Assembly (NCBI RefSeq): GCF_028641065.1
Contig: NC_073399.1
Location: forward strand, 3,038,001-3,102,000
Origin: Leucoraja erinacea
Taxonomy: Eukaryota
Length of the DNA: 64,000 nucleotides
Direction of reading: 5' to 3'
The position numbers and the translations under genes were made by a program. Shown here one piece after another: positions 2,764 to 62,976 of this stretch (position 1 is the first letter of the stretch; each line of letters opens with the position of its first letter). The notes under the pieces were generated by a model. The model was not told the DNA's origin, made no database searches, and saw only the letters and a program-made list of their open reading frames with translations.

Positions 2764-3008
2764 TGTTGGAGAACTCAGTGCTTCTGGCAGCATCCCAAAT
2801 TCTGGAGAATGTGGATTAATGACGTTTGAGGTCTGGACCCTACTTCAGATTCCAATGTCACAAAATGGTCCAGTCTGAACAAGGATCACAAGCAGAAACG
2901 TCACCTGTCCATGTTTTCCAGAGATGCTGCTTGACCGGCTGAATTACTCCAGCATTTTGTGTCTTTTAAAAAAAAAGTAAACTAGCATCTGCAGTTCCTT
3001 GTTTCTGC
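2764..3008. mobile_element. Penelope-like fold-back terminal-repeat fragment (degenerate)
   Basis: Antisense arm ggagaactcag...gacgtttgaggtctggaccctacttcaga, then sense arm ctgaacaagg...gaaacgtcacc...agcatctgcagttcc. Confidence 0.7.
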
Positions 3009-3148
3009 ACTGAGATGGTTCCATCTGTCTGTTCAAGCATAAGTAATAGACCCCAACCAATGCTTAGTGACGTCTGAAGCATTGTACAGATATCTTGGCC
3101 GACCTTTGTGCTTCAACTACATCACCAAAACAAAATCATTGTTGACCT

Positions 3149-3428
3149 GGGGCAGCACGGTGGTGCAGTGGTAGAGTTGCTGCCTTACAGAGCTCGCAGC
3201 ACCGGAGACCTGGCTTCAATCCCGACTATGGGTGCTGTCTGTACGGAGTTTGTACGTTCTCCCTGCGACCACGTGGGGTTTCTCCGAGATCTTTGGTTTC
3301 CTCCCACACTCCAAAGACGTACAGGTTTGTAGATTAATTGGCTTGGTATACGTGTAAATTGTCCCTAGTGTGTGTGTAGGATAGTGTTTCCACCCTGTAT
3401 CTCTGAACTAAACTAAACTAAACTAAAA
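3149..3428 (+). mobile_element. HE1-like V-SINE
   Basis: Head ggggcagcacggtggtgcagtggtagagttgctgccttacag, V core, (ctaaa)n tail. Confidence 0.92.
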
Positions 3429-3532
3429 CTCACTAAAGCCTATACACTAGAGAACTTAATTTGGGAAAGAGCTCAGTACATGCTAGTCTTTGTAAGAAAA
3501 ATCTAAATGTTTTATTTTACTAGAATTTCACG

Positions 3533-4110
3533 TCGTGGCTCAGCTGGTTGAGTTGTTACTTCACAGCGCCAGAGACCCGGGCGGGATCAATCCTGACCTG
3601 GAGTTTGCACATTCTCCCTGTGACCATGTGGGATTCCTCCGAGTGCTCCAGTTTCCTCCCACATCCCAAAGACATGGAAACATAGAAAATAGGTGCAGGA
3701 GTAGGCTATTCGGCCCTTCGAGCCTGCACCGCCATTCAATATGATCATGGCTGATCATCCGACTCAGTATCCTGAACCTGCCTTCTCTCCATACCCCCTG
3801 ATCCCTTTAGCCACAAGGGCCACATCTAACTCCCTCTTAAATATAGCCAATGAACTGTGGCCACAACTACCTTCTGTGGCAGAGAATTCCAGAGATTCAC
3901 CACTCTCCGTGTGAAAAATGTTTTTCTCATCTCGGTCCTAAAAGATTTCCCCCTTATCCTTAAACTGTGATCCCTTGTCCTGGTTTCTAGGTTAATTGGA
4001 CCCTGTAAAATGCCCCTTGTGTTTACATAGCGGATATGAAACGTAGAACAGGTGATGGTTGGTATGGTGGGCGTGGGCCAAAGGAACAGGTTCCAAGCTA
4101 AATCATTCAA
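3533..4110 (+). mobile_element. HE1-like V-SINE interrupted by a CR1
   Basis: SINE runs to acatcccaaagacatg (~3676) and resumes at gtttctaggttaattgg (~3984). Confidence 0.8.
3677..3983 (-). mobile_element. Young CR1 LINE 3' end nested in a SINE
   Basis: Minus frame gives HSLRIRGKSFRTEMRKTFFTRRVVNLWNSLPQKVV; reverse complement of the (TTTCTATG)n tail. Confidence 0.95.
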
Positions 4111-4881
4111 TCAATGCCAAGAGTACATCACAAAATGACACGGCATGGAGCGCTGGTGACAGAGGGGCGAGCCTGGGGATGGAAAGTCATGACGCACCTT
4201 TGAGGAGGTTGCAGGACCTACTGCATGTTTCCACCAATCTCGGCTTTTATTTTTGAAGCAGGAGTTGAAAGGATTAGAAAGAATGTTCCCAAGTGTGAGA
4301 GCAAGACTGGGTGAACCCCCCCCCCCCCAGCTGAAGGTGAAGCATGCAGGGGGGGTGTGGGGAGGGGTTGTAACCAAGGTCATACTCAGCTTATTACAAC
4401 AGACCTGCTGGAATGCAGGATCAAAGAAGATTGCTGGGCAGAATTTTTATTTTATTTTCTGCAGTAACATAGGGCAGTGGAATATTGAGTGCCTTTGCAG
4501 TATAATCCATAATAAGCCGACTTCATGCTCTCTCCCTCTGTAGCCACTTTTATGTTCATTGTGTGTAGCTACTGGGTTTCAGCTTTCATAGGAAAACAAT
4601 CTAAATTACAAATGCCAACGCACAACAAAACCCCCAAAATCCAGTGTAATAAAAAAGGTTTTAATGTATTAAACTGCCTTGAAGCAGTGGCTTTGCTCAG
4701 ACCTTCATAACTTGTATTTTAAGCTTATGTAAACTTGAACGTTAGTATGTCTGAAGAAGTGCAGGTTTGAGATTGTGGCTGGCAGCTACAGTCCTGTCCA
4801 CTACCACAGGGATGTTTCAATTCTTTGAAATTCCGCATTTGAAGATATAAGTTTGAAGTATCCAACAATATACATTAAAGA

Positions 4882-5002
4882 TGTGTAGGAAAGAACTGCA
4901 GATGCTGCAGTATACTGAAGATAGACACAACATGCTGGAGTAACTGAGCAGGTCAGGCAGCATCACTGGAGAGAAGGAATATGTGACCTTTTGGGTCGGG
5001 AC
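4882..5002 (-). mobile_element. Penelope-like terminal-repeat fragment
   Basis: tgtgtaggaaagaactgcagatgctg...gacacaacatgctggagtaactgagcaggtcaggcagcatc, the antisense arm of the family. Confidence 0.75.
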
Positions 5003-6020
5003 TCAAGTCAAGAGTATTTTATTGTCATATGTTCCTGATGGGACAATGAAATTCTTACTTGTTGCAGCACAACAGAACATGTAATGTGTATACACATTCA
5101 GACATACTCAATAAATAAACAAATATAGTGCAATAGTAATGATAGGCATGCAGGTGCAGCAGGCAGTAAAGAAAGCGAATGGTAGGTTAGCTTTCATTGC
5201 AAAAGGATTTGAGTATAGGAGCAGAGAGGTTCTACTGCAGTTGTACAGGGTCTTGGTGAGACCACACCTGGAGTATTGCGTACAGTTTTGGTCTCCAAAT
5301 CTGAGGAAGGACATTATTGCCATAGAGGGTGTGCAGAGAGGTTCACCAACTGAGGGATGTCGACTGTCTTTGGGCCGAAGACTTGGTTTATACTCTCTAG
5401 AATTTCAGATTGGGATCTTATAGAAACTTACAAAATTCTTAAGGGTTGGACAGGCTAGATGCCGAAATTGTCCCGCCTATTTCCTTCGACAAGGGGTCAC
5501 ATAAGATAAAGGGGAAATCCTTTAAAACCTGCTGCACTTTTTTCCGCAGAGAGTGGTGATCTCTGGAACTCTCTCCAGCCATTTTGTGTATTTAAGAGGG
5601 AGTTACATGTGGCCCTTGTGGCTAAGGGGATCAGGGGGTATGGAGAGAAGGCAGGTACGGGATACTGAGTTGGATGATCAGCCAATCATATTGAATGGCG
5701 GTGCAGGCTCGAAGGGCCGAATGGCCTACTCCTGCACCTAATTTCTATGTTTCTATGTTTCTATAATAGTTTGTTACAGTTCAGAGCTTATTTGCCGCCG
5801 TATTTAATAGCCTGATGGCTGTAGGAAAGAAGCTGTTCCTGAACCTGGACGTGACATTTTTCAGGCTCCTGTAGCTTCTTCCTGATGGCAACGATGAAAT
5901 GAGTGCGAGGCCAGGATGGTGTAAGTCTTTGATGATGTCTGACCATTTTTGAGGCAGCGACTTCGATAGATCCCTTCGATGGTGGGGAGGTCAGAGCCGG
6001 CAATGGACTGGGCAGTGGAC
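5003..6020 (-). mobile_element. Rex1/Babar-like LINE 3' fragment, split by a CR1
   Basis: Colinear with the uninterrupted copy at 27733-28155 (tttattgtcatatg...atcccttcgatggtgg). Confidence 0.75.
5140..5763 (+). mobile_element. Young CR1 LINE 3' fragment (ORF2 C-terminus)
   Basis: [49 protein letters not shown]; (TTTCTATG)n tail; indel-rich middle. Confidence 0.95.
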
Positions 6021-6359: not shown

Positions 6360-6667
6360 CAGAACGAGGGGTCACAGTTTAAGGATAAGGGGGAAATCTT
6401 TTAGGACCGAGATGAGGAAAACATTTTTCACACAGTGAGTGGTGAATCTCTGGAATTCTCTGCCACAGAAGGGTAGTTGAGGCCAGTTCATTGTCTATAT
6501 TTAAGAGGGAGTTAGATGTGGCTCTTGTGGCTAAAGGGATCAGGGGGTATGGAGAGAAGGCAGGTACAGGATACTGAGTTGGATGATCAGCCATGATCAT
6601 ATTGAATGGCGGTGCAGGCTCGAAGGGCCGAATGGCCTACTCCTGCACCCTATTTTCTATGTTTCTA
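6360..6667 (+). mobile_element. Young CR1 LINE 3' end
   Basis: ggtcacagtttaaggataagggggaaatc...gaatggcctactcctgcaccctattttctatgtttcta. Confidence 0.95.
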
Positions 6668-7130
6668 AACACTCTTGGCTGATGAAAGTCTCAGGGCATA
6701 AGAAAAGCTGAAGGGTAAAACATTTTTTTAAATGCATTTACCCTCATTATTAAATCTGTGAGTGGTCCTGCAGCGGCACCACAGCTTCAACACCTGGACT
6801 CTGGAAAACAAACGGACATTTTCACGATAGGAACCAGCAGGCCTGAAGGAACCTGTGGGACCGATCAATTGACTTTGTATCAAAGTGATTATTTTGGTGG
6901 GGGAATAATAAACCTTTTAATTGGGAGATAATTCCTTCCTGCTTTCAAATGGAACCAATTATTTGTGTTTTTGAATTATTGTGCTGCTTAAGTTTATGCC
7001 AGCAGGGAACTATTTTGGCATACTTATCACAAATTATCCATATAAACGTGGAACCTGCAGTGAGGCACTGTGCATGTTATATACATGACTGTGGCAATAC
7101 TTCCTGTGTTTTTAATATAAGCCTGGCCAT

Positions 7131-7568: not shown

Positions 7569-7735
7569 CTTTTGTTTATACATGTCAAAGGTGTTGGATT
7601 AGATACCCTGCATCAAATGGCTCAATTTGTCAACAGCATCTATTTCTAGTAATGCAGCAATGTAGAATGAACACAGCATTAAAGGTAGATTTTCCATCCA
7701 TCATGATCTTTGAAAGAACTATCCATTCTATACTA

Positions 7736-7888
7736 GGTACACAAAAATGCTGGAGAAACTCAGCGGGTGCAGCAGCATCTGTGGAGCGAAGGAAATAGGC
7801 AACGTTTCGGGACGAAACGTTGCCTATCTCCTTCGCTCCATAGATGCTGCTGCACCCACTGAGTTTCTCCAGCATTATTGTGTACCTT
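7736..7888. mobile_element. Penelope-like palindromic (fold-back) element
   Basis: ~75-bp near-perfect inverted arms ggtacacaaaaatgctggagaaactc...aacgtttcg / cgaaacgttgcc...cagcattattgtgtacc. Confidence 0.85.
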
Positions 7889-8042
7889 CCTGAAAGGCAG
7901 ATGTTTGCTGAAGCGACACAAAGTGCTGGAGTCACGCAACAGGTCAGGCAGCATCCCTGGGGAACATGGATAGGTGATGATTTGGGTCGAGTCCTTTCTT
8001 CAAGACTAGAAATTGTTGCCAGCATAGAACCTCACTCAACAA

Positions 8043-8333
8043 TGGCAGTACGGTGGCACAGCGCCAGAGACCCAGGTTCGATCCTGACTACAGGCGATGT
8101 CTGTACGGAGTTTGTAAATTCTCCCCGTGACCTGGGTGGCTTTTCTCCGGGAGCTCCGGTTTCCCCCCACATTCCAAAGACACACAGGTACGTAGGTTAA
8201 TTGGCTTGGTAGAATTGCCCTTAGAGTGTGTAGGAAAGCGTTACTGTGCGGGGATCGCTGATCGTTGTGGGCTTGGTGGGCCAAAAGGCCTGTTTCCGCG
8301 CTGTATTTCTAAACTTAAGGAAACTAAACTAAA
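8043..8333 (+). mobile_element. HE1-like V-SINE
   Basis: B box ggttcgatcc, V core and CR1-type tail. Confidence 0.9.
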
Positions 8334-9842: not shown

Positions 9843-10237
9843 AAGGATCTTATAGAAACTTACAAAATTCTTAAGGGGTTGGACAGGCTAGATGCAGGAA
9901 GATTGTTCCCGATGTTGGGGAAGTCCAGGACAAGGGGTCACAGCTTAAGGATAAGGGGGAAATCCTTTAAAACCGAGATGAGGAGAACTTTTTTCACACA
10001 GAGAGTGGTGAATCTCTGGAACTCTCTGCCACAGAGGGTAGTTGAGGCCAGTTCATTGGCTATATTTAAGAGGGAGTTAGATGTGGCCCTTGTGGCCAAG
10101 GGGATCAGAGGGTATGGAGAGAAGGCAGGTACGGGATACTGAGTTGGATGATCAGCCATGATCATATTGAATGGCGGTGCAGGCTCGAAGGGCCGAATGG
10201 CCTACTCCTGCACCTAATTTCTATGTTTCTATGTTTC
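9843..10237 (+). mobile_element. Young CR1 LINE 3' end
   Basis: DRLDAGRLFPMLGKSRTRGHSLRIRGKSFKTEMRRTFFTQRVVNLWNSLP; (TTTCTATG)n tail. Confidence 0.95.
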
Positions 10238-10290
10238 CCAGTGTTTAGTGGAGTGACCTCTCCAGTATTGGACAAACAGAGCAACTAAGC

Positions 10291-10479
10291 TGTTCAAGAA
10301 GGAACTGCAGATGCTGGAAAATCGAAGGTACACAAAAATGCTGGAGAAACTCAGCGGGTGCAGCAGCATCTATGGAGCGAAGGAAATAGGCAACGTTTCG
10401 GCACGAAACGTTGCCTATTTCCTTCGCTCCATAGATGCTGCTGCGCCCGCTGAGTTTCTCCAGCATTTTTGTGTACCTT
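10291..10479. mobile_element. Penelope-like palindromic element
   Basis: Inverted arms centred on caacgtttcg-gca-cgaaacgttg. Confidence 0.85.
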
Positions 10480-10530
10480 TTTATTATTTCAGTGTCAGGA
10501 TCAAATGCCTGACAAAAGTTTTGACCAACT

Positions 10531-10735
10531 GGACGGCAAGATGGTGCAGCGGTAGAGTTGCTGCCTTACTGAGCCCAGGACCCGGGTTCGATCCTGACTA
10601 CGGGTTCTTCCCGTGAGTGTGGGTTTTCCCCAGGTGCCCCGATTTCCTCCCACACTGCAAAGACGTGCAGGTTTGTAGGTTAATTTGTCTTCGGTAAAAA
10701 AAATTGTAAATTATCTCCAGTGCGTAGTCTCTAGT
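10531..10735 (+). mobile_element. HE1-like V-SINE (internally deleted)
   Basis: Head with B box ggttcgatcc and partial V core. Confidence 0.85.
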
Positions 10736-10739: not shown

Positions 10740-11824
10740 ACCATCAGCAGTTGTATCATCAATGCAGATAAGTGAGCCAGTACCTTCAGCAGCCATACAT
10801 GCCCAGGCCATAACACCCCCACCACTGTGTTTCACAGATGAGGTGGTATGCTTAGGATCTTGGGCAATTCCTTCTCTCCGCCGACTTTGGTCTTGCCATC
10901 ACTCTGATATAAGTTAATCTTCGCCTCATCTGTCCAAAAGACCTTTTTTCCAGAACTGTGGTTGCTCTTTTAAGTACTTCTTGGCAAACTGTAACCTGGC
11001 CATCCTATTTTTGTAGCTAACCAGTGGTTTGCATCCTGCAGTGTGGCCTCTGTGTTTTTGTTCATGAAGTCTTCTGCGGACAGTGATCATTGACAAATCC
11101 ACACCTGATTCCTGAAGAGTGTTTCTGTTCTGTCGGACAGGTGTTTGGAGATTTTTCTTTATTATAGAGAGAATTCTTCTGTTATCAGCTGTGGAGGTCA
11201 TCCTAGGCCTGCCAGTCCCTTTGTGATTAGTAAGCTCACCAGTGCTCCCTTCTTAATGATGTTCCAAACAGTTGATTTTGGTAAGCCTAAGGTTTGGCTG
11301 ATGTTGAGAATTGGGGAGAATAAGTGTTCGTCACGGACTAGAAGGGCCGAGATGGCCTGTTTCCGTGTTGTAATTGTTATATGGTCTCTAACAGTTTTAT
11401 TCTTGTTTCTCAGTTTCATAATGGTTTCTTTGACTTTCATTGGCACAATTTTGGTCCTCATGTTGATAAACACCAATAAAAGTTTCCAAATGTGATGGAA
11501 AGACTGGAGGAAAGACTGGGTGCTGAGAGCTGTCTGTTACCTGCATTAAGGAGGCATTTAAACACACCTGAGCAATTACAAATGCCTGCAAAGTCATGTG
11601 TCCCAAACATTATGGTGTCCTGAAATTGTGGGACTATCAATAAACACAGCTGTAATTTCTACGTGGCTGAAACCAAAATGTATAAAAATAGCCTTGAATA
11701 AAATCTGACAATGTGCACTTTAACCACATGTGATTTTTTTTCTATTACAAATCCACAAATTGTGGAGTAAAGAGGCAAATAAATAAATGATGGGTCTTTG
11801 TCCCAAACATTATGGAGGGCACAG
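10740..11824 (-). mobile_element. Tc1-family DNA transposon, 5' half, with frameshifted transposase and IR/DR end
   Basis: Minus frames give ISQTLGLPKSTVWNIIKK, TVRRRLHEQ...KPLVSYKNRMARLQFAKKY and KINLYQSDG...VKHSGGGVMAWACMAAEGTG. DR gtcccaaacattatgg at 11600-11615 and 11800-11815; TA at 11825-26. Confidence 0.92.
11305..11384 (+). mobile_element. CR1 3'-tail mini-insertion inside the Tc1 transposase
   Basis: ggggagaataagtgttcgtcacggactagaagggccgagatggcctgtttccgtgttgtaattgttatatg matches the tail of 7131-7568. Confidence 0.85.
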
Positions 11825-12024: not shown

Positions 12025-12300
12025 AGTGTTGCTGCCTTACAGCGCCAGAGTTTCGATCCTGACTACAGGTGCTGTCTGTTCTCATCTGGGACCACGTGGG
12101 TTTTTTCTGGATGCTCCGGTTTCCTCCCACACTCCAAAGGTGTACAGATTTGAGGGTTAATTGGCTTTGGTACAACTGTAAATTGGCCCGAGCATGTAGA
12201 TAGTGCTGGTGTACGGGGGGAGGGGGTTGTTGGTCGGGACGGACCTGGTGGGCCGAAGGGCCTGTTTCCGCACTGTATCTCTAAAGTCTCAAAGTAAAGT
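12025..12300 (+). mobile_element. HE1-like V-SINE
   Basis: gttgctgccttacagcgccagag head, V core and CR1-type tail. Confidence 0.88.
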
Positions 12301-12811
12301 CCCTCTTCGGTGTTCTGGAACACTTATAATGAATGTAGCTCAAGTTTATGTCTGTGCAAAATACCAAGTAGCAAAGATTATGATTCAAAACCGTAACAGA
12401 ACGAGAGCTTACACCCGGCTGCTAACCTTGAGAACAAAATAACAAGTCGTTTAACACATATCTGATCCGCATATGTGTTACTTCCTTGATACTGACGCCT
12501 ACATGGGTGCTCTGTACAAGTAATGCAGGAAGAAATGTGAAGTTATCAGGGACGGACAATGACTCAAAATAGTAATAACACTGAGTTGGACAGAAAACAG
12601 GAAATGTGATGCCTAGAATGTCTTGCGCAATAGGGATGACCATGTTTTATTTTAAGCAACTAGTGTGCAAATTAGTGCACGTGGAGTAGTGAGTGTGTAC
12701 ATGGAGAGGACAGCATCTGCAGTTCCTTGTGTCCACTATGTATGCAAGTTGCTGGACTGGTGATTGTGATGATGATCTAGTCCCACAAACACACCCCCTT
12801 CACCAGTATGT

Positions 12812-13385
12812 AGAAACATAGCAAATAGGTGCAGGAGTAGGCCATTCGGCCCTTCGAGACTGCACCGCCATTCAATATGATCATGGCCGATCATCCAACT
12901 CAGTATCCTGTACCTGCCTTCTCTCCATACCCCCTGATCCCTTTAGCCACAAGGGCCACATCTAACTCCCTCTTAAATGTAGCCAATGAACTGTGGCCTC
13001 AACTACACCTGAGCAATTACAAATGCCTGCAAAGTCATGTGTCCCAAACATTATGGTGTCCTGAAATTGTGGGACTATCAATAAACACAGCTGTAATTTC
13101 TCTCCTGAAACCCCTGATCCCTTTAAAATCTGACAATGTGCACTTTAACCACATGTGATTTTTTTTCTATTACAAATCCACAAATTGTGGAGTAAAGAGG
13201 CAAATAAATAAATGATGGGTCTTTGTCCCAAACATTATGGAGGGCACAGTAATGTGAAGCATTTATTCACACCCAACTGAATACATCACGGGACCTGCAT
13301 GAAACCTCGTGGAAACCAGGTCCCACACCCAACTACTGGCAGAGAATTCCACAGATTCACCACTCTCTGTGTGAAGAATGTTTTG
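12812..13385 (-). mobile_element. Young CR1 3' end interrupted by a copy of 11564-11885
   Basis: CR1 tail reverse complement 12812-13004; CR1 resumes ~13330 (ggcagagaattccacagattcaccactctc). Confidence 0.85.
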
Positions 13386-13859: not shown

Positions 13860-14185
13860 GGAACTCTGTCCTTATCCCATCCGGGGAGAGAGGAAGAGAG
13901 AGCAGAGCTCTGGGAAATAGAGGAGGTGGGTTGAAGGGAGCGGGGGGGGGGGGGGGGGGTCCACATTGGTGAAGAGAGGGGACATTTCAAATATCCGTGA
14001 ATGGAAAGCCTCATCTTGAGAGCAGATGTAGCAGAGACGGAGCAAGAGATGGCGTCTTCACAAGCAGTTGGGCAGGAGGAGATGAAGTCACGGTAGCTCT
14101 GGGAGTCAATGGGTTTGAAGTCAATGCCAGTCGATAGTCTGTCTCCTGTGTTGGAGGTCAGAGAGATCGAGAAAAGAGAGAGGTC
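13860..14185 (-). pseudogene. Penelope-like element reverse-transcriptase C-terminal remnant
   Basis: Minus strand reads (with frameshifts) LSFLDLS..GDRLSTGIDFKPIDSQSYRDFISSCPTAC..LRLCYICSQDEAFHSR, matching the PLE pattern FLD..KPTD..YL...S.HP...RICS. Confidence 0.75.
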
Positions 14186-14194
14186 AGAGATTTA

Positions 14195-14567
14195 ACCTTC
14201 TACCCTCTCCCCTATCCCCCTCCCACCCATCTCCCTGCCTCCGGCTCCATATTTCACTCCTCTTCTTTCCTGTCTACCTGGAGCCTTTGCCCCAAACTCC
14301 ACCCATCCGTTGGTCACCTGTACCCTTGCCTGTACCCTGCTCTCACTTCTATCACGTGCCAAGGGTTTGACCCACCCCTACCTCCCTTTCCCAGCTTCCC
14401 CCCCCCCCCCCCCCCTCCCATCGCTCCATCAGTCAAGAGGCAAGATCCCGACCCGAAACGTCACCTGTCTATTTACCTCCACAGATGTTGCCTGACCTGC
14501 TAAGTACCGACCAGCTCCTCGTTTTTGTGCTCAGGTTTATTAAGCATCTGCGGCCTCTTGTGTCTCC
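14195..14567 (+). mobile_element. Penelope-like terminal repeat, inverted relative to the adjacent RT remnant
   Basis: C-rich leader, degenerate hammerhead (atcccgacccgaaacgtcacc), then cagatgttgcctgacctgct...agcatctgc. Confidence 0.7.
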
Positions 14568-16435: not shown

Positions 16436-16925
16436 TATAGTCATAAGTGATAGGAGCAGAATTAGGCCATTCGGCCCATCAAGTCCACTCCCCCATTCAA
16501 TCATGGTTGATCTATCTTTCCATCCTAACCCCATTCTCCTGCCTTCCTCCCATAGCTCCAGACACCCGTTCTAATCAAGGATCTATTTATTGTTTAAGAG
16601 GGAACTGCAGATGCTGGAGAATCGAAGGTTACACAAAAAAGCTGGAGAAACTCAGCGGGTGCAGCAGCATCTATGGAGCGAAGGAAATAGGCAACGTTTC
16701 GGGCCGAAACCCTTCAAGGGTTTCGGCCCGAAACGTTGCCTATTTCCTTCGCTCCATAGATGCTACTGCACCCGCTGAGTTTCTCCAGCTTTTTTGTGTA
16801 ACCAAGGATCTATTTATGTCTGCCTTAAAAAATATCCATCCACAGACTTCCACTGTGAATTCCACAGATTCAACAATAAAATAACCTCATCTCCTTCCTA
16901 AAGGAATGTCCTTTCATTCTGAGGC
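16436..16925 (-). mobile_element. CR1 3' end (older subfamily) hosting a PLE hairpin
   Basis: ataggagcagaattaggccattcggcccatc...gaattccacagattca...attctgaggct. Confidence 0.8.
16591..16802. mobile_element. Penelope-like palindromic element with 15-bp TSD
   Basis: Inverted arms centred on gaaaccc-ttcaa-gggtttc; caaggatctatttat at 16576-16590 and 16803-16817. Confidence 0.9.
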
Positions 16926-19641: not shown

Positions 19642-19965
19642 TTAAAGGAAGAAGGAACTGCAGATGCTGGAAAATCGAAAAGTAGGCCGAATCCCTTGGG
19701 AAACAGGCAACGTTTCGGGGCCTTTTCCCTTGGGAAATAGGTAACGTTTCGGGCCGAAACCCGAGGGCCTATTTCCTTCGCTCCATAGATGCTGCTGCAC
19801 CCGCTGAGTTTCTCCAGCATTTTTGTGTACGAAGGAACTGCAGATGCTGGTGTACATCAAATATGGACACAAAATGCTGGAGTAACTCAGCGGGACAGGC
19901 AGCATCGCCGGAGAGAAGGAATGGGTGAAGTTTTGGGTCGATTCTGGCATTTTGTGTCTATCTTC
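19642..19965. mobile_element. Cluster of Penelope-like terminal-repeat fragments with an internal partial tandem
   Basis: gaaggaactgcagatgctgg heads at ~19651 and 19831; two cccttgggaaa(c/t)agg(c/t)aacgtttcggg units. Confidence 0.75.
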
Positions 19966-46800: not shown

Positions 46801-47147
46801 GAATCTAGATGAATAATCAGACCAAAAGTGTCCAGGATGTAGTGATTGTAGCTGGTTAGCTGACTGACAACATTCAATTAATTGATATATAATCTCTGAT
46901 TTTAACTTTTTGTTAGAGGTTACTGGCAGCTTAATTGTCCTAAACGTAAACATTCTCCACCTGAAAATTTACTTTAAGACATTTTAATCTCGTAGCAAAC
47001 TGAACCGTTAATTTTTGCCAAGGAGACTTCAACAGTATCTGGCAAACCCTACCACTTATACTTTTGTGCTTTTACCAAATATTTATTTTAATTCTCAGGG
47101 CTTCTCCTGGAGATGGTTTCATTCTGCTGGAGATGGTTGCGGAAATT

Positions 47148-47497: not shown

Positions 47498-48217
47498 TAA
47501 ATCAATCAGATGGTACCTATTTCTCCCTCCCCTGCACCCACATTCCTCCCACTGGCTTCAAAATTAGCATCTCTTCAATACTTTTCACCAACTGATTTTT
47601 GGCCTTTGTCCAACCACCCCCCTCACCTGTGTTCACCTATTACCTGTGTAGGAAGAAACTGCAGATGCTGGTTTAAACCAAAGATAGACGCAGAATCCTG
47701 GAGTAACTCAGCGGGACAGGCAACATCTGTGGAGAGAAGGAATGGGTGACATTTCGGGACAAAACCCTTTTGGGTTTCTCCAGAGATGCTCCCTGCGCCC
47801 CTGAGTTACTCCAGCTTTTTGTGTCTATCTTAAGCATAAGGATAATTTAGTGACTGGAAGGCTGTATGCAGTGCGCTTCTGCAGTTCCCAGAGCTATTTC
47901 CCTTGCTTTTTATGAAAGGTATCAAAGATTTACAATTAAATAAGGGGCTCACGATTAGGTAGTTTACAAATGACACCAAAACTAGCAGAAATGAGGAAGA
48001 CATCGGAGGTGCATGAAAATATCTAGATGCAAAACATGGCAAGTGGAATTTAAATCAAGACAATTGTGAGATTGCATTGATGTGGGCTATTAAATCATGG
48101 TAATTTGCAGTAAATGGTGGGATATTTTGCAGTGTAATGGAGCAGAAGGATTTTGGAGTACTCACCCAGATATTTTTGCGATCAGCAGAACATGCAGATA
48201 AGGCATAAGAAATACTT

Positions 48218-48380
48218 ATGTAGGAAGGAATTGCAGGTGCTGGTTTACACCACAGATAGACACAAAATGCTGGAGTAACTCAGCGGGGCAGGTAAGAGTC
48301 TCAACCCGAAAATGTCACCCATTCCTTCTCTCCAGAGATGCTGCCTGTCTCATTGAGTTACTCCAGGATTTTGTGTCTAT
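48218..48380. mobile_element. PLE fold-back element with 14-bp TSD, inside an old CR1
   Basis: cataagaaatactt at 48204-48217 and cataagagatactt at 48381-48394. Confidence 0.82.
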
Positions 48381-49505: not shown

Positions 49506-50292
49506 TAAAAGTAAACTGAAAGATGTTGGAACCTTAAGCAAAAAAAAACAAAGAGCTGGAGGAACTCGACGGGTCGGGCAGCATCTGTACAGGGAAATGA
49601 AGAGGCGACGTTTCAGGGAGGCAACCTTCCTCATGCTGACGTGGATGGTCTCCAAATTCTGACTCCGATCAACAAATGGTCAAAACTAGCTGAGATGATC
49701 TGAACTGCGGTCCCTGGGAGGGACTCGACTGTGCAAGCAGGTTAAAGGGAGTTGGGGAGTAGGAGCCTTTATAGACTCCAGTATAAAGTTAAAAAAACGT
49801 AAGGATTACAGGATATAAGTGTGGAGGGGTTGTGGAATAAAATGAAAAACCAGAGCAGCGGCTAATGAATCATAAAACATGTAAAATGATTCATGATCTC
49901 AACGTCCTGGACACAGAGCTAAATCTGCATTGCCAGCTAAATTACTGCCAATGCTGGCTCTCGCTGTAGAAAATGCTTCATAAGCAGATTGTGCAACTTA
50001 CCATCAGCTCATTTCCAGATGTTGATTTATAATTACAGCATTGCATGTTTTATAGCATGAGGTCATAAATCATTGAGCACAGTCTGTGTCGGGTGGCACA
50101 ATGGTGTAGAGAGGTGAGATCCCGCCTCACAGTGGTCTAAGTTCCATCCCGACCCCCTGAAGTGCCTGGGGAGAAGTTGTACAATCTCCTTGTGACCTGG
50201 CGGGCTTCCTCCCTTATTCCAAAAACATGCGGGTTGGCAGGTTAGCTGTCCACCTCAAATTCCCCATAGATTGTGGGTGAGTGGTGGAACTC

Positions 50293-50512: not shown

Positions 50513-50729
50513 TGAGGGAAATGTTGGGAGAAGAGGTCAGTGGTCTACATGTGTATTACAGGTCCACCACCGATTTTCCGGCAACTGATAGTCCAGCACC
50601 TCCCTTAATCCGGACAAAATTACAAAATGGCATTTGAAATTCCCAGGGTGGCCACATACGGCGCTGCGCGTGATGCCGTTATTTTGGGACTTGCACCTCC
50701 GTCCCGACAGAGATATTTGTTTACAGCAG

Positions 50730-50940
50730 TTTAAGAAAGAACTGCAGATGCTGGAAAAATCGAAGGTAGTCAAAAATGCTGGAGAAACTCAGCGGGCGAG
50801 GCAGCATCTATGGAGCGAAGGAATAGGTGATGTTTCGGGACGAGAAGTCTGAAGAAGGGTCTCGACCCGAAAAGTCACCTATTCCTTCACTGCATAGATG
50901 CTGCCTCACCTGCTGAGTTTCTCCAGCATTTTTGGTTACC
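50730..50940. mobile_element. PLE fold-back element with 14-bp TSD and a near-intact hammerhead motif
   Basis: tttgtttacagcag at 50716-50729 and 50941-50954; ctgaagaagggtctcgacccgaaaagtc at 50849-50876. Confidence 0.9.
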
Positions 50941-51156
50941 TTTGTTTACAGCAGGAGTTGTTGCTGGGGATCCTTTGGTTTTGTCGAATTCTTGGCTTAT
51001 TTTGCTTACATTTAATCCTAGCAGTGGCTTCTAGGTAAGGTCCAGGTGACAGTCGCAGTGTTAAACCTAAGCACATTTAATTTAGATTCAATATTTGTTT
51101 TATTTAAGTTTCTAGCAGTACATGGTGCTTTAGAGACACGGGAGAAGTATAATTAG

Positions 51157-51234
51157 ATGCTGCTGCACCCGCTGAGTTTCTCCAGCAATTTTGTGTACCT
51201 TCGATTTTCCAGCATCTGCAGTTCCTTCTTGAAT
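51157..51234 (+). mobile_element. 78-bp PLE tail insertion with 16-bp TSD
   Basis: ggagaagtataattag at 51141-51156 and ggaggagtataattag at 51235-51250. Confidence 0.82.
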
Positions 51235-51803: not shown

Positions 51804-52086
51804 AGGGCCTGTCCCACTTGGGCGACCCAAGCTGCGAGTTTAGAAGAGTTTGCCCTGTACGGAGGTTTTGTGTTCCCCCCCCATGACCTGCGTGAGTTGT
51901 CTCCAGGATACCAGGTTACCCCCCACACTCCAAAGACGTACGGAATTGTAGACTAATTTGCTTGGTTAAATTGTCACTGGTGTGTGTAGGATTGTGTAAA
52001 TGAGCGGGGATCAGTGGCTGGTGCGGACTCGGTGGGCTGAAGGGCCTGTTTCTGCGCTATATCTCTAAACTAAACTAAACTAAAAC
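51804..52086 (+). mobile_element. Left half of a Harbinger-like MITE joined to a 5'-truncated V-SINE (from ~51857)
   Basis: tta|agggcctgtcccacttg, then V core and (ctaaa)n tail. Confidence 0.75.
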
Positions 52087-52508: not shown

Positions 52509-53931
52509 AAACCTTGCTGTAATTGACGTTGCCAGAAATATTCATAGAGTGAGGTGAGGAGGAATGCATCCATGTATTTTATCATATTTGAAATGAGTTC
52601 AATCAAGTTTGGCTACTTCCTGCTGACAGCTGCTTTCAATGCCACAGACATATATTTCACATGCATAGTTCACCTTCTCAGCCCTGACGTTCATCAGTTA
52701 CTCCAGCGCTTTATGCCCCGCTGCATGACCACAAATAATGACATAATGCAACTGTGATTAAGCTTTGCATCAAGAGCTCATGTTCGATAGTACGAGCATC
52801 TTTTTCCTCCACGAAAGCTGCTATCTTTACGCTGCTTGTTCCACTATTGAAACCGTATGGTGAAATTTCTTTTTCCAAGCATTGTCTGACAATGCATTCA
52901 ATGTGAAAGCCAGCTTGGAGTCAGAGCTGGGTTAATTCCAAGTTATTTAAGAACTTTGGGAATTGGGTTCTTGACCTCATCATGGGCCAATGGAAATAAT
53001 TAGACTGACTGATTCACCATTTCTATGAAAGTACCCATATGATTCTGTCCTTCCAGTGACTATTATTGCTTGTTGCCTCATCGTCGTGCTCTTGTCATCA
53101 AATGGAGGTTTAGAAGAAGCACAGAGTTTGATTTTCGTTGGTTTCTAATGTCAAACAACTTGGGCTGTAACTGTGCTGTCAGCTCCGTTCAGCAAACTCT
53201 GGCAAGGTGCAGGTAGATGCTGATGACAAGGGAGTTATAGGTTCAGTAACTTATTGCTTTGGAAGTCAAAACGGTGCTGATTTCATCGGCAAGTGTAAGG
53301 CAGATTTAGTGTAAACTGGAATGTTTTAGAAGACGATACCATCTGATCTCACCCCTTGCAACTTTTTATTTTTGCAATTCAGCTCGAGGCTCTTTGAGGG
53401 TTTGTGGGTCGGAGAGACGCAAACAGACTGTAAAACAAAATGTAATAGATGTTGAGAAGGCTGCCAGCCAAAGGAAATGAATAGTGTACCCGAGGCTCAC
53501 AGATTTAAATCCTTTGGCTGTCTGCTATGTGAACTTAGACGTGAATTTATTTTGAATAAGTGTGAATTATTCCAAACCAGACCATGATAAGAAACAGAAA
53601 CAGAATGACATTTTTTGCATTCCATCCTGTAGTGGAATAGTGGAAAGGAAAATGATTACTGACTTTGACGCTCTGATTTGAGGTGCTGATTGTTAGAGTA
53701 CAGCTTCAGGGCTAATATCAGATGCCAATAATAGGCAGAGTCGGAGATTGATGGGATCTGTGCACTTGCAAGAAATATGTAGAGGGACCAGTTAAATGTT
53801 CCATCAAATATATTGAATTAACCCATTCCCTGCCAAATCGCACTATGACAACCAGCCATACACACACCTTGCTGAGCATTCATTTGAAACCTACTATTTA
53901 CTGCAGGAAAGGCTTCCTTTTGTACCCTCGG

Positions 53932-54524
53932 GAGACAAGAATGCTGGAGAAACTCAGCGGGTGCAGCAGCATCTATGGAGCGAAGGAAATAGGCAACGTT
54001 TCGTCACGTTAACTGGATAGACACTGACATATTCGAAACACACACACACACACAAAAAACATTTGGAAAAAGTTCCAATGCTCTTTGCGAATGGGTAGTT
54101 ACATTCTTGTTTACCAAAAAAACAAAATAGTTGAAGGACGTGGAAACACAGTAGATCGATACACGGAACCCAAAGGAAATAGCAAACGTTTCGGGCCGAA
54201 ACCCAAAGGAAATAGGCAACGTTTCGGGTCGAAACCCAAAGGAAATAGGCAACGTTTCGGGCCGAAACCCAAAGGAAATAGGCAACGTTTCGGGCCGAAA
54301 CCCAAAGGAAATAGGCAACGTTTCGGGCCGAAAACCAAAGGAAATAGGCAACGTTTCGGGTCAAAATCCAAAGGAAATAGGCAACGTTTCGGGCCGAAAC
54401 CCTATGGGTTTCGGCCCAAAACGTTGCCTATTTCCTACGCTCCTTAGATGCTACTGCACCCGCTGAGTTTCTCCAGCACTTTTGTCTACCTTCGATTTTC
54501 CAGCATCTGCAGTTCCTTCTTAAA
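53932..54524. mobile_element. PLE fold-back element with an expanded centre
   Basis: Antisense arm 53932-54003, ~160-bp unrelated spacer, 33-bp array, sense arm 54406-54524. Confidence 0.85.
54169..54402 (+). repeat. 7 x 33-bp tandem array
   Basis: Unit cccaaaggaaataggcaacgtttcgggccgaaa, with no spacers. Confidence 0.96.
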
Positions 54525-56200: not shown

Positions 56201-57596
56201 TTAGAGGAGTGGAAACTGATATTGTTTTGCCCATCATGTTGATGGGCTATGAAATGACTTGTGGCGCCATTTGTGGCCACAGAGAGCCTCTGCATCAACA
56301 GTTGGGTTAGATTATCACCGGCATGGTTCAACTGGTGTTTGACTCTTCATACAATGGGTTGTGAAAATACCAGCACCAAACTCAGCAAACGCACAATTAG
56401 ACATGATGGGCCTTTGAAGCCATGTGATTACATTTTAGCCGTTAGATTTTTCCCATGCAATCTTCAACGCTGAGCCTTGTCTAATTTCTCCCTTCTATGC
56501 TCAGCAACTTGGAAAATACGCAGTAGCTACTGCGTACTGAGGAAGATATCAAGTGACCAAACGTGAAGGAAGGGACTACAGGTGCTGGTTTATACTGAAT
56601 ATAGACACAAACTGCTGGAGCAACTGACTCAGTGGCTCACTCAGTGTTCCCTATCACCAGAGTCGCAGCCTGACCTGCTGAATTGCTCCAGCACTTTGTG
56701 TCTATCTTCAGATATTAACTAATATGCCTAAGGATTGAATAGTGCACAAACTGCAGGAAAAGCCAAACCACTGGTGGCCTTTAACTCACCCTGTTACCAC
56801 TGCTTATCACCTGGATTTCAGAAGCTCCAGAGCCTATGTATATTAAACAAGTATTAAAAAAATGGATTCATTTGGGTGCCCAAAATAATATTGCTATCTG
56901 AAAATCGGTCTCAACCTGAAACGTCACCCATTCCTTCTCTCCAGAGATGCTGCCTGTCCCACTGAGTTACTCCAGCATTTTGTGTCTATCTTCGCTGTTT
57001 TTAAGATCTTTTCTCAAGTTGAGAGGAGAACAAAGGTTCTCTCACCTTTGTTCAAATGTCTTCAAACTAAAAGCCCGTGGATCCTGGTACAGTCGGCTGG
57101 TGTGTGCAGCGCAATAAGCAAGCTGCCTCACTGTACGAGCAGTGCCACCTCTAACCTCAGAAGTATCTCTAGCGTTAGTCTGCTGCTGCTGCCTGGTATT
57201 GAAGCAGGAAACCATATATCTAGCACATGCTAAAATAAGATTCGCAGTCGGATATGTAAAATAAATTGTCACATTGATGGAAAGATATTACTGAAGGTTT
57301 CTTGTAAAGACCAGAATGATTCTTTATTTAGACTTGGCCACACCTCAATATTTCTCTGCTAGTTCCGAGAGCTAGCAGTAACCGTACAAAGTGAATTGAA
57401 AACTGGTTTCAAAACTTTCAGAGGAAATGACTGTGCGAAGTAATAATAGCATGTGGAATTCTGAAAACTTGCCCAAAATCTGTTGCTAATTAGTTCAAAG
57501 TAAACCTATTTTGTCAACATTCAATTTAATAAGGTGGTTGTCAGTATTCTCGTGCTTGATAAAAGTGCATAGTGCTAAGAGAATTAACTGGTATAT

Positions 57597-57818
57597 TGTG
57601 TGGGAAGGAACTGCAGATGCTGGCTTACACTGAAGATAGACACAAAATGCTGGAGTCACTCAGCGGGACAGGCAGCAACATCTCTGGATAGAAGGAATGG
57701 ATAAAGTTGTGGGTCTTTTTCAGAAGAAGGGTCTCGACCCGAAACGTCACCCATTCCTTCTATCCAGAGATGCTGCTGCCTGTCCCGCTGAGTGACTCCA
57801 GCATTTTGTGTCTATCTT
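57597..57818. mobile_element. PLE fold-back element
   Basis: Inverted arms; cagaagaagggtctcgacccgaaacgtc at 57721-57748. Confidence 0.87.
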
Positions 57819-59591: not shown

Positions 59592-59946
59592 GTTAAAAGC
59601 TTTTCACTGTACACGTGACAATAAACTAAATTGAACTGAATATCTTGGAAATTCAAATTCAAATTGCATACAAGTTAAATTTCCACGATTTTTTTTTTTC
59701 AAGGCCAAACCTGGCTGTGTCCACCTGATGAGTTGCCCGTGCATTAATCACTATTTACCACAGCAGATTTATGTCAACTGAGGTTTTTTTTAATTTTTGG
59801 TTTATGGATATTGACATTTTAAGCCAAGCCTCTATTGGCCCTCACCTAATTGCTCTTGAGAGCGCCATGGTGAGCTGCCTTCACTAATGGCCAGCATTTA
59901 AATGGAAGGATCTTTGAAGGTTTTTCTATGGTATGGAAACTTATTA

Positions 59947-60253
59947 TAGAAACATAGAAACATAGAAATTAGGTGCAGGAGTAGGCCATTCGGCCCTTCG
60001 AGCCTGCACCGCCATTCAATATGATCATGGCTGATCATCCAACTCAGTATCCCGTACCTGCCTTCTCTCCATACCCCCTGATCCCTTTAGCCACAAGGGC
60101 CACATCTAACTCCCTCTTAAATTTAGCCAATGAACTGGCCTCAACTACCCTCTGTGGCAGAGAGTTCCAGAGATTCACCACTCTCTGTGTGAAAAAAGTT
60201 CTTCTCATCTCCGTTTTAAAGGATTTCCCCCTTATCCTTAAGCTATGACCCCT
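59947..60253 (-). mobile_element. Young CR1 3' end
   Basis: (CATAGAAA)n plus the reverse-complement CR1 tail. Confidence 0.96.
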
Positions 60254-60679
60254 TATCTATTTTATGTTATATCTATGATATAATATTATCTATTTTATGT
60301 AAAGCACTTTGGTGTCAATGCGAGTTGACTTAAAACGTGCTATATAAATAAAACTTACTTACTACTTACTTACTAGTGGCCGTGTAGGTGGATAATATGG
60401 TTAAGAAGACACGTGGGATACTTGGCTTCATTAGCTGTGACATTTAAAACAAGACCAGGGACATTGTTGAACTAACCTCAGACCCGCTGGACTACTGTGT
60501 ACAGCTTTGGTCATTATGCTATTAGAAAGATGTGATTGCTCTGGAGAGGATGCTGAGGAGTATCGCCAGGATGCTGCCTGGAAAGGAGCATTTTAGATAT
60601 GAAACAGATGTAAAGCCAGGGGCATGAGCCTACGATGCTATGACTATGATTCTATGACTCTGACTTGAAGTATATTGCA

Positions 60680-60775
60680 AGTAGACAAAAAATGCTGGAG
60701 AAACTCAGCGGGTGAGGCAGCATCTACGGAGAAAAGGAGGAGTCGATGTTTCGGGTCGAGACCCTTCTTCTGACT
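60680..60775 (-). mobile_element. Single-arm PLE insertion bounded by the hammerhead motif, 11-bp TSD
   Basis: agtatattgca at 60669-79 and agtgtattgca at 60776-86; same span as 32023-32118, opposite strand. Confidence 0.8.
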
Positions 60776-60852
60776 AGTGTATTGCATGTATTTTCTGATA
60801 TCATTTCAAAATGTGTCTCCTGCTCTAATTATTATTATAATATTGTAACTTG

Positions 60853-60980
60853 AGTCTGAAGAAGGGTTTCGACCCGAAAAGTTGCCTATTTCCTTCGCTC
60901 CATAGATGCTGCCTCATCCGCTGAGTTTCTCCAGCATTTTTGTCTACCTTCGATTTTCCAGCTTCTGCAGTTCCTTCTCA
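60853..60980 (+). mobile_element. Single-arm PLE fragment starting at the hammerhead motif
   Basis: agtctgaagaagggtttcgacccgaaaagttgcc...ctgcagttccttc. Confidence 0.85.
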
Positions 60981-61433
60981 AAAGTAAGAAATTAACTTGC
61001 CTGAATGCAGAAATATAGACATGAATTGGCAGCCTTAATGATAATGTGCTTTTATTTAAGCAGCACTGCTTAGTAGTTTTAAATTGTTGCAATTTGTTTC
61101 GATGTGTACTCAAGAACCTTATAGATTCAGTCTGTCTGAATAACAAAGAGAAGGCAGGGAGATGGTGTATCAAATGATCTGTGGAACACAATGGGCCCTT
61201 TATGGTCAAAGACAATTGCACACTGATCATAGATGTGAACAGTACGGATTGAAAAAAACATTATTATGTAAATTGATATCTAAAATGTTGCTTCTCTATC
61301 AAGATTAAACAGAGACTGCTCAGTTTTATTTAAACATTTGCCTTTAAATGCACCATCTTCGACAGTCTATAACAGTGTAAATTGCATATTAAAGTGATGA
61401 ACTAATGCACACGTATGATAGTCACAGTATGAT

Positions 61434-61978
61434 GGACACATTGCTGGGGGTAACTCAGTGGGACAGGCAGCATCTCTGGTGAGAAGGAATGGGTGATGAC
61501 TTGGGTCGAGACCCTTCTTCAGACCCAGAGGCAAGCAGCACTAAGAAAACAAAATGTGTTGGAAGGAACTGCAGATGCTGGTTTAAACTGGAGATAGACA
61601 GAAAATGCTGGAGTAACTCAGTGGGACAGGCAGCATCTCTGGTGAGAAGGAATGGGTGGCATTTCCCCAACAGTCTGGACTGTCCGAAATGCCACCAATT
61701 CCTTCTCTCCAAAGATGCTGCCTGTCCCGCCAAGTTACTCCACCATTTTGTGTCTATAGAGAAAACAAGCGCGACTGTGGTAGCCAGTCTGGGTTGAAAC
61801 GTGGTGGTGGAGCTGGAGGGCTGGAGGAATCACACAGGGAGCAGCGAGAGAGAGAGAGGGTGTTGCAGAACTCTCGTCAGAGAGAGAGCAGAACGTCTTC
61901 AAAGTTGGCATTACCTTGAGGAGATGTTGCAGTGGAGCAGACAAAATGTGTCGGAAGGAACTGCAGAAGCTGGTCGCA
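61434..61978. mobile_element. PLE cluster, including a probable ORF start downstream of the terminal repeat
   Basis: Several arms; on the minus strand the repeat end (ctgcagttccttccgacac) leads into MPTLKTFCSLS...LQLHHHVSTQTGYHS (~61758-61912). Confidence 0.6.
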
Positions 61979-62719
61979 GTGTGGACAGTCACGGTATATA
62001 TTTTTAAAGAGCGGGGCGATGTATCGCCCTTTATTAAAGTTCTTACTGTGCGATATTCATGTATTGAGGTTCAACTGTAATTGTTACTTGAAACCTTACT
62101 CTCTGACGTAGACAGCCACAGTTTGATTGATTTGAAATTTTTTAAATGTACCCTGACTTATTTGACCTTTTTATTATGTGTGCATAACTAACTGCAGACC
62201 AGAAAAAGCTTGGGACCTCCAGGATCTATACATTTATCATCCTTTTTTGGACGCGGATAGCCATTAGAAAATTACTCCACAATTGATTTGCTCAGGATAC
62301 GGTTAATGTTTCATTCTTTGGATATGATCGCTTCTTGCGGCCCAGCCATGCAGAGTCGCATGTGAAGCATATTATGAGCAGGGAAATAGTGAATTTAATA
62401 ATACCCTTTCCCTTCCAGTTCTGACAGGTGTCACAATGCATCATTTATTCGGCTCTGCAGAACATCACAAACACACACACACCCGTGCATCTTTATACTT
62501 TAAATCATTACTGAGTGGGGCCCATAGTCCATTGTTTATCATGGAAGCTGCACACAACACACCTTCTGCTTTTATCAGTCTCATTATCTCTTGAACTCTT
62601 CACCACTTACTCCGTCAACTGGTAATGAAATGTTGATGATTGATTTGCCAGTCCCATCGTGAGCTCTCTTTATGCAATTAAAGTTCGTCACTTTTGGGTG
62701 AAATGCTTCTTTTAATGAC

Positions 62720-62976
62720 GACACAAGGAATTGCAGATGCTGGAATTTTGAGTAAAACACCAAGTACTGGAATAACTCGAAGATAGACACAAAAAGCTGG
62801 AGTAACTCAGCGGGACAGGCAGCATCTCTGGAGAGAAGAAATGGGTGACGTTTAGGGTCAAGCCCCTTCCTACTGGAATAACTCAGACACAAAATGCTGG
62901 AGTAACTCAGCAGGACAAGCAGCACGTCTGGAGAGAAGGAATAGGCGACATTTCGGGTCGAGACCCTTCTTCAGAC
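62720..62976 (-). mobile_element. Nested PLE terminal-repeat fragments
   Basis: Inner insert flanked by tactggaataactc (62765-78, 62871-84). Confidence 0.82.
62947..62974 (-). ncRNA. Candidate minimal hammerhead ribozyme core (best-preserved copy)
   Basis: Minus strand reads CUGAAGA A GGGUC-UC-GACCC GAAA U GUC, with both conserved boxes and a GUC triplet; helix I is only ~2 bp, so activity is unproven. Confidence 0.55.

Follow-up and report, generated by a model that had tools for sequence, protein, structure and literature searches.

A dispersed repeat with a minimal hammerhead motif in Leucoraja erinacea and its probable origin in a Penelope-like terminal repeat

A 64,000-nucleotide stretch of the Leucoraja erinacea genome (NCBI RefSeq assembly GCF_028641065.1, contig NC_073399.1, positions 3,038,001 to 3,102,000; hereafter the window, with coordinates counted from its first letter) holds a dispersed repeat that carries a minimal hammerhead ribozyme motif. 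The locus raises two questions: from which element the copies derive, and whether they form, as a reading made from the sequence alone had proposed, a reservoir of ribozymes able to cut host pre-mRNA. We conclude that the repeat is very probably the pseudo-long terminal repeat (pLTR) end of a Neptune-type Penelope-like element (PLE), a retrotransposon, in a cartilaginous fish, and that its short copies were inserted many times and are now decaying neutrally; the clade is probably Neptune. The dispersed copies are probably dead remnants rather than a store of ribozymes that cut host RNA.

The repeat family and its parent element

All 11 copies listed in the sequence-only reading exist where, and on the strand on which, it had placed them, and each, as it had cautioned, departs from its consensus at one or more positions. 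Its count of more than 10 recognisable cores stands as a count of copies; every invariant core base is kept in only four of them (41466, 50849, 60856 and 62974). The 28-nt motif makes up the 5' end of a repeat that measures 100-135 nt. A profile built from the copies finds 68 repeat fragments in the window (29 on the plus and 39 on the minus strand; 5,678 aligned bases, overlaps counted twice) and none in each of five dinucleotide shuffles; 55 of the fragments are at least 40 nt long and 22 span C3 to H17. The bare pattern CTGANGA-(8-20)-GAAA occurs nine times in the window against 2.6 +/- 1.8 in 30 shuffles (maximum 7), and five of the nine matches belong to the family. The other matches (6679, 18564, 29180 and 20214) have no hammerhead fold and were rejected as chance. 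The division into two subfamilies is upheld: A comprises 35 copies (mean pairwise identity 0.77) and B 16 (0.89), with four copies in neither, and B is younger than A. The very large copy number that had been anticipated is also found, the single copy at 60853-60978 drawing 78,375, 57,459 and 6,244 contigs of related organisms (the first two counts from two such organisms) and 8,217 reads of a polyA RNA run of a related species.

Read from its 5' end, the family model consists of the first core box, an extra A, a stem II of 4-5 bp opened by G10.1-C11.1, GAAA, a four-base palindrome that occupies the place of helix III, and GUC or GUU. Its consensus has all 11 invariant core bases at the correct spacing and both ends in helix I, and PLE-type traits recur among the copies (the extra A in 21 of 22, G at 10.1 in 19 of 24, and a C/G majority at 15.2/16.2). 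The minimal hammerheads of metazoan PLE pLTRs, as described in the consulted parts of Cervera and de la Pena 2014 (PMC4209133), share the core boxes, an extra unpaired base between A9 and 10.1 (before stem II), the G10.1-C11.1 pair and a palindromic 15.2-16.2 without loop 3; they lie in PLE terminal repeats and are dispersed through fish genomes, mainly as single copies with some close opposite-strand pairs. They differ in stem II, which has 7-8 bp in the schistosome families against 4-5 bp here, where helix I is also only ~2 bp. Since the motif is the same and PLE structure is present in the window, the type I minimal layout and the Penelope-like origin suggested by the sequence-only reading are both supported. 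Such motifs are known from Xena, Poseidon and Neptune PLEs of fishes, with thousands in coelacanth and Xenopus (PMC4209133); the consulted parts of that paper do not name cartilaginous fishes, which its supplements may cover. Minimal hammerheads in PLE termini, numbering thousands in fishes and amphibians, have been known from the literature since 2014; this locus adds a shark/ray example and not much more.

An Rfam scan of the window returned 34 matches at E<=5, with no hammerhead family among them; Rfam models would presumably not fit minimal hammerheads that lack helix III. In an alignment of 20 copies, stem II is paired in 83% of cells by one count and, by another, in 78.6% versus 9-44% for slid partners, and the covariation score is 0.176 against 0.180 in column shuffles, 262 of 500 of which reach it. 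With no Rfam match and no covariation above shuffles, the structure rests on the motif layout and on the literature. Both results would suit a hammerhead likeness that had arisen by chance in an ordinary short interspersed element (SINE) or a hairpin repeat resembling a miniature inverted-repeat transposable element (MITE), an explanation that we find extremely improbable given a consensus with the whole invariant core correctly spaced, three extra PLE traits (PMC4209133), and inverted forms whose variable junction and asymmetric ends are unlike MITE termini.

The link to a PLE protein is provided by a frameshifted piece of a reverse transcriptase (RT) thumb on the minus strand (14191-13971), which is ~50% identical to shark/ray proteins. 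With 13 proteins as tblastn queries, the PLE-type shark/ray proteins match at 14191-14039 (~50% identity) and 14027-13971 with E values of 1e-6 to 2e-9; in a protein search most of the matches listed were eRF1 proteins drawn by the chimeric N-terminus of P0008, and these were ignored. The matched proteins have RT and GIY-YIG domains, and a motif like the cysteine linker lies between RT and endonuclease (EN) in four of the four relatives examined. These relatives by themselves point to a cartilaginous fish as the host. Neptune and Nematis PLEs share such a linker (PMC8557442). In the accessible text of that paper (Craig et al. 2021), EN-containing (EN+) PLEs of the Neptune clade resemble the window family in their inverted 5'-truncated 5' copy, optional 30-40 bp tail at one end and pLTR hammerhead, and relatives of the window's RT piece have the same C-terminal GIY-YIG domain and cysteine linker; the comparison is limited by the window holding a thumb fragment only and by the presence of the linker in Nematis as well. 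The RT piece is joined head-to-head to 14191-14551 (+), the longest terminal-repeat piece in the window. The zebra-shark gene model P0013 extends past its endonuclease, and when its last 16 residues were tested against 127,900 six-frame positions, hammerhead copies in the same sense made up 14 of the top 20 (12 flagged by script and two more read across the pair at 16591-16799). A phmmer search gave eight matches, two of them relevant (P0006 and P0008) and six that looked like low complexity and were dropped; a word-based protein search with the 54-aa RT fragment gave no match.

Several observations weigh against this assignment. A BLASTP comparison of P0013 with one translated copy yielded no meaningful match (E 0.59), the RT piece lies in inverted orientation to the adjoining pLTR piece, the window's own fragments match no PLE-type Pfam family, and a full-length element is absent from the window, so that the connection between open reading frame (ORF) and repeat is indirect. 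Exact pattern scans for the full element found 0 loci each in viral and in metagenome contigs.

Two of the gene models encountered, P0008 and P0015, fuse PLE RT pieces to host-like parts (an eRF1 domain, and "nicotinamide riboside kinase 1" in a skate); the fusions are probably annotation artefacts.

Core decay and predicted activity

A core no better conserved than its neighbours had been named beforehand, alongside a lack of cleavage, as evidence against ribozyme function, and no excess conservation is found in the window or in relatives, which is the scope of the comparison as opposed to the whole genome of L. erinacea. Outside CpG, core positions in the window are mismatched in 22/284 cases (7.7%) and downstream non-diagnostic positions in 178/2198 (8.1%; p=0.91). 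G12 lies in a CpG and is changed in 11/39 copies versus 31/133 at other CpG G positions (p=0.53). In relatives it is read as A in 10.7% and 11.9% (contigs) and 13.2% (RNA reads), with 4.8-9.3% at five other CpG G sites and 11-15% C>T at another CpG (60870) in the same public runs. The catalytic G12 decays at the CpG rate in the window and in three public runs. We considered the higher G>A rate at G12 as a sign of selection against active ribozymes and rejected it, given that the window excess is not significant and that C>T at 60870 reaches 11-15%. Core-spanning copies show no strand bias (seven plus and seven minus right of 30100; three and five left of 29400). The neutral decay of the copies says nothing against activity of a source element.

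The invariant core is intact in only four of the 22 core-spanning copies, of which three lie on the plus strand; three of the four keep stem II, and just one copy of the 22 (62873-62977) has both the core and a self-pairing helix III. In most copies the boundary of the copy shortens helix I to ~2 bp. In the four complete cores folded with flanks, the hammerhead-like monomer fold makes up 1e-20 to 3e-5 of the predicted ensemble, and in the dimer at 62756-62977, which alone among the tandems has one complete core, the in-cis core is predicted at 4e-15. In the family model, and in three of the five copies that were folded on their own, the purine-rich start is predicted to pair with a run of pyrimidines immediately after the cut site; the other two copies are predicted to do so more loosely. 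Five inverted pairs form predicted hairpins of -138 to -170 kcal/mol, within which their cores would be locked. The dispersed copies are predicted not to cut; the energies take no account of Mg2+, tertiary contacts or proteins. Among the 8,217 RNA reads, no position, the predicted cut site included, gathers many read starts or ends, which is weak evidence because the run was polyA-selected, came from another species, was ~6% read and is of strandedness not known.

How far do these results bear on the proposed cutting of host pre-mRNA by the copies, singly or as inter-copy dimers? The very high copy number, the four complete cores and the occurrence of the repeat in polyA RNA of a related species speak for such a reservoir, and dimers of minimal hammerheads do cut in vitro, weakly in PMC4209133 and strongly in one of nine Xenopus dimers tested (Li, Clavereau and Pollet, bioRxiv 10.64898/2026.07.22.740005). 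Nevertheless, we regard the proposal as very unlikely: the core shows neither excess conservation nor strand bias, most cores are broken, those in pairs are predicted to be locked in hairpins and others to be buried in alternative folds, and only one copy combines core and self-pairing helix III, with helix I at ~2 bp. In the published accounts available to us, minimal hammerhead monomers showed no cleavage (PMC4209133), and the hammerhead of PAc, a Poseidon element of Anolis (Frangieh et al. 2024, PMC11167929), required its protein, with no RNA-seq reads reported to end at its cut site. Nor does the window contain a demonstrated intron: Pfam scans of 193 non-repeat frames of at least 55 aa found no host exon, only transposase and RT pieces and two sub-threshold matches.

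The inverted pairs at 7735-7889, 10291-10492, 16591-16799, 50729-50953 and 57597-57818 would, if transcribed, form near-perfect hairpins of 70-100 bp and are possible sources of double-stranded RNA for editing or silencing. These five also draw spurious matches to microRNA (miRNA) families. The sub-threshold Rfam miRNA matches were rejected, as they are positioned on inverted pairs and explained by them.

Unit ends, inverted pairs and a proposed route of insertion

A unit consists of the hammerhead motif followed by ~65 nt to a short end, or further through a ~35-nt tail, which gives two 3' ends at model positions of about 90-110 and, with the tail, about 126-136; piles of loose ends in public reads coincide with both (60948/9 and 60978/82). 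Among 20 close neighbours, 15 are head-to-head, three tail-to-tail and two in tandem. Exactly one arm carries the tail in 13 of the 15 head-to-head pairs, neither arm in two and both in none (P=0.003 under independence of the arms, the pairs themselves supplying the tail frequency; dropping the duplicated pair leaves 12 of 14 and P=0.005). In two pairs the arms overlap by 15 nt on a quasi-palindrome made of the stem II 5' strand and GAAAC. Target-site duplications (TSDs) of 7-16 nt flank six of the 22 full-start copies against a permuted mean of 0.49 (reached in 0/500), although two of the six are less clean, one lying inside the expected tail region and one 14 nt off the end; for pairs the count is seven of 15 against 2.6 (reached in 2/300). 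The duplications are AT-rich, and their presence around singles and pairs alike indicates that each single or pair is one insertion event. Head-to-head inverted terminal repeats, a tail at one end and TSDs of variable length are the traits of EN+ PLEs, and the repeat has them; inverted 5'-truncated pLTRs, 30-40 bp tails at one end and palindromes at the inverted junction are described in the consulted parts of PMC8557442 and PMC3846280. A head-to-head pair and a single copy have each been doubled by a local tandem duplication of ~1.6 kb (about 20850-22450 and 22450-24050).

The closest mechanistic precedent is PAc, for which, according to the accessible text of PMC11167929, cleavage and extension take place on both DNA strands, reverse transcription begins at two internal RNA sites that delimit the tail, the RNA used as substrate is mainly uncut, and the hammerhead needs the protein in order to cut. 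Two RT start sites downstream of the hammerhead and AT-rich targets would be common to PAc and the window family. PAc differs in belonging to another clade, in an ORF that starts inside the hammerhead and in start sites located in a stem-loop that is AC-rich, whereas the window units have both 3' ends in T-rich sequence and show no ORF start. Transferring the scheme from PAc to this repeat, we infer that the element's RT/GIY-YIG protein would nick AT-rich DNA and that reverse transcription would be primed at one of two internal RNA sites, by analogy with PAc in vitro, which would account for there being two 3' ends. If both DNA strands served as primers, each at a different site, the product would be a head-to-head pair in which one arm has the tail and the arms meet at the quasi-palindrome within the hammerhead. 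RNA uncut by the ribozyme would be the template, because 44 of 55 copies start at model position 24 or before and so keep sequence 5' of the cut site, which follows position 31; four of 55 start at 25-35. Copying would likely run off the RNA 5' end at the hammerhead 5' edge, and the short copies would be leader-primed cDNAs. The hammerhead itself would likely function only in the source element, as a dimer or helped by the element's protein. Two findings sit uneasily with this scheme: one pair arm (20850-20943, and its duplicate) starts ~1 nt from the cut site, and the arms of two pairs are 100% and 98% identical (none of 52 others as close) while those of two others are 72% and 78% identical, so that a single template per pair is not established.

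The 5' edge is fixed: among the 22 copies reaching the motif start, 20 end within 6 nt of the hammerhead 5' edge (one of them a local duplicate) and two run into C-rich sequence; by eye, the flanks of the 20 look unrelated. Over the preceding 84 model positions 33 of 55 copies are lost, which by arithmetic makes the loss rate at the edge some 35 times higher. In at least four copies a TSD lies 0-1 nt from the edge, which argues that the edge arose during insertion. Most simply read, an RNA would start at the hammerhead 5' edge. In the 14191-14551 copy, the junction matches the initiator consensus YYANWYY. Penelope pLTRs contain internal promoters (PMC2377424, in its accessible part). Against such a start, reads of the polyA RNA run of a related species (~6% read) do not pile up there.

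We tentatively propose, as a possibility short of being probable, that most insertions come from RNA whose first base is that of the hammerhead, that priming falls 100-135 nt downstream on uncut RNA at either of the two sites, and that the very short cDNA goes in complete or as an inverted pair made from two primers and joined within the ribozyme. If this is true, the element seeds each genome with tens of thousands of fixed-length units, each with a hammerhead and priming sites, and with near-perfect RNA hairpins. Alternatively, the edge could mark where the RT halted, either at some structure or at the C-rich tract (G-rich in cDNA) immediately upstream, or it could be what a splice acceptor has left behind. 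The tract is strongly C-rich and ends in CAG in the 14191-14551 copy, and the intron of D. virilis Penelope ends at the helix I 5' end (PMC4209133); an RT stop, however, would be expected to leave ends inside the tract, a splice acceptor would be expected to leave a common first exon upstream, where the 20 flanks look unrelated by eye, and in at least four copies a TSD sits 0-1 nt from the edge. We consider this explanation rather unlikely, if a serious one.

Another route to a fixed edge would be a short unit that is itself a non-autonomous element, SINE-like or retrozyme-like, transcribed alone and mobilised again by the PLE protein. In line with such a unit, upstream extension is absent from all 16 copies of the younger subfamily B in the window, and the window contains head-to-tail joins, as do a few of the relatives' contigs (60950-to-60854 in 7, 4 and 1). 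These joins are nevertheless rare among tens of thousands of contigs, neither of the window's tandems (54167-54402 and 62756-62977) has a second complete core, two window copies extend into the C-rich pLTR, and the upstream loose ends lean C-rich in all four runs (agreement 0.33-0.40). We think such a unit unlikely. The animal non-LTR retrozymes of bioRxiv 10.64898/2026.07.22.740005, whose tandems the available preprint text derives from pLTRs with one chondrichthyan included, are similar in being pLTR-derived non-coding units with a type I hammerhead and many monomers. They are defined, however, by tandems with at least two complete motifs; the window has none and inverted pairs dominate, and by that measure its repeat is not a retrozyme.

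The locus is of use as fossil evidence for a transposition cycle that is poorly understood. Tails on one arm, junctions within the ribozyme, retention of the uncut 5' part and a fixed 5' edge are all consistent with two-site internal priming as in PAc in vitro, and all can be counted genome-wide. They also bear on the role of PLE hammerheads, which here apparently do not cut the RNA that is inserted. A fixed 5' edge was not found described in the literature searched, a search that left subscription papers and Repbase mostly, and paper supplements likewise, outside its range.

Feature coordinates and other sequences in the window

Table 1. Features of the window. Listed copies are those of the sequence-only reading; HH, head-to-head pair.
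Feature	Coordinates	Strand	Remarks
Broken PLE RT C-terminus/thumb	13860-14191	-	Frameshifted; tblastn; left end near 13860 by eye from translation
Longer pLTR piece	14191-14551	+	C-rich upstream part, then decayed hammerhead copy 14437-14551
HH	2757-3003		2757-2849 (-) without tail, 2872-3003 (+) tailed; both cores broken
Single copy	4881-5002	-	Tailed; starts inside stem II
HH, subfamily B	7735-7889		15-nt overlap on stem II/GAAAC quasi-palindrome; both arms tailless
Copy from hammerhead 5' edge	7892-8007	-	G12 broken
HH, subfamily B	10291-10492		15-nt overlap; left-arm tail only
HH, subfamily B	16591-16799		Left-arm tail only; TSD ~15 nt
Complex fragment cluster	19649-19941		Includes tail-to-tail junction (19746-19830 +, 19824-19941 -)
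Fragment without hammerhead	20312-20407	-	Tailed
Listed copy 20628-20655	20605-20656	-	U16.1 changed; cut off by LINE-like 3' end
HH	20850-21033		Left-arm tail only; 13-nt TSD
Copy	21517-21613	-	C3 changed; duplicate of 23113-23209
HH	22451-22622		Duplicate of 20850-21033 (local ~1.6-kb duplication)
Listed copy 23183-23210	23113-23209	-	C3 changed
Diverged copy	24609-24716	+	Starts just before stem II
Short copy	25558-25626	+	First core box and GAAA broken
Listed copy 32025-32052, subfamily B	32022-32120	+	Tailless; G12 changed; exact 10-nt TSD abutting 5' edge
Copy extending upstream into C-rich pLTR part	35561-35688	+	Core broken
HH	35721-35845		Tailless; core broken
Listed copy 38014-38037	37903-38039	-	Tailed; GAAA broken; 9-nt TSD (1 mismatch)
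HH	40137-40404		73-nt spacer; left-arm tail only
Listed copy 41466-41493	41463-41596	+	Tailed; core complete; stem II 3/5 pairs; 8-nt TSD
HH	47645-47831		Left-arm tail only
HH	48219-48379		Left-arm tail only; 14-nt TSD (1 mismatch)
Diverged copy	49514-49633	-	First core box broken
HH	50729-50953		Exact 14-nt TSD; predicted long hairpin
Right arm of 50729-50953, listed copy 50849-50876	50846-50953	+	Core complete; helix III non-palindromic
Fragment without hammerhead	51155-51230	+	Tailed
Cluster	53930-54522		53930-54003 (-), tandem array 54167-54402, tailed 54406-54522 (+)
33-nt tandem array	54167-54402		7.2 units, 94% matches; stem II to downstream; first core box absent
HH without hammerhead	56560-56709		Left-arm tail only
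Single copy	56897-57000	+	First core box broken
HH	57597-57818		Arms identical over 57 compared positions; left-arm tail only
Right arm of 57597-57818, listed copy 57721-57748			U4 changed
Listed copy 60745-60772	60666-60775	-	U4 changed; tailless; 11-nt TSD (1 mismatch)
Listed copy 60856-60883	60853-60978	+	Tailed; core complete; helix III non-palindromic; C3=60856, G12=60876, predicted cut between 60883 and 60884; reference for public reads
Listed copy 61498-61522 in tandem with HH	61436-61756		Copy 61436-61524 (-), GAAA broken; HH 61553-61756
Head-to-tail dimer	62756-62977	-	Period 100
Best-kept copy	62873-62977	-	Core complete; stem II 5/5; helix III self-pairing with G-U
Dimer partner	62756-62869	-	Without first core box and G12
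Fragment	63958-64000	-	Cut by window end
Second repeat family, first part	3666-3965, 5580-5764, 6470-6675, 9857-10240, 12802-13101
Second repeat family, rest	26880-27185, 33998-34389, 35858-36274, 46417-46825, 59946-60257
Third repeat family	1969-2287, 3236-3713, 8099-8221, 10600-10698, 12059-12181, 28357-28479, 51855-51977

The tandem array at 54167-54402 is a minisatellite born from the stem II region of subfamily B, that is, from a PLE terminus. A second, young repeat family (Table 1) has copies up to 97-99% identical that end in short AAACATAG-type repeats; we take it to resemble the 3' ends of long interspersed elements (LINEs) of CR1/L2 type. Other mobile-element remains are an RT fragment at 39653-39982 (Pfam RVT_1, E 3e-12) and a broken Tc1/mariner-type transposase at 10929-11536 (-; HTH_Tnp_Tc3_2, E 3.6e-13, with a weak match to HTH_SB). 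A 12-nt minisatellite occurs at 29323-29427 (nine copies) and 30262-30847 (49 copies), on either side of a GC-rich and CpG-rich stretch at 29501-30000 that includes a 23-unit GCT run. A promoter and a mobile-element end are the candidates for that stretch, in which a clear donor site is absent where expected. The third dispersed family is older, with copies of about 100-120 nt and 60-85% identity, and is probably a SINE.

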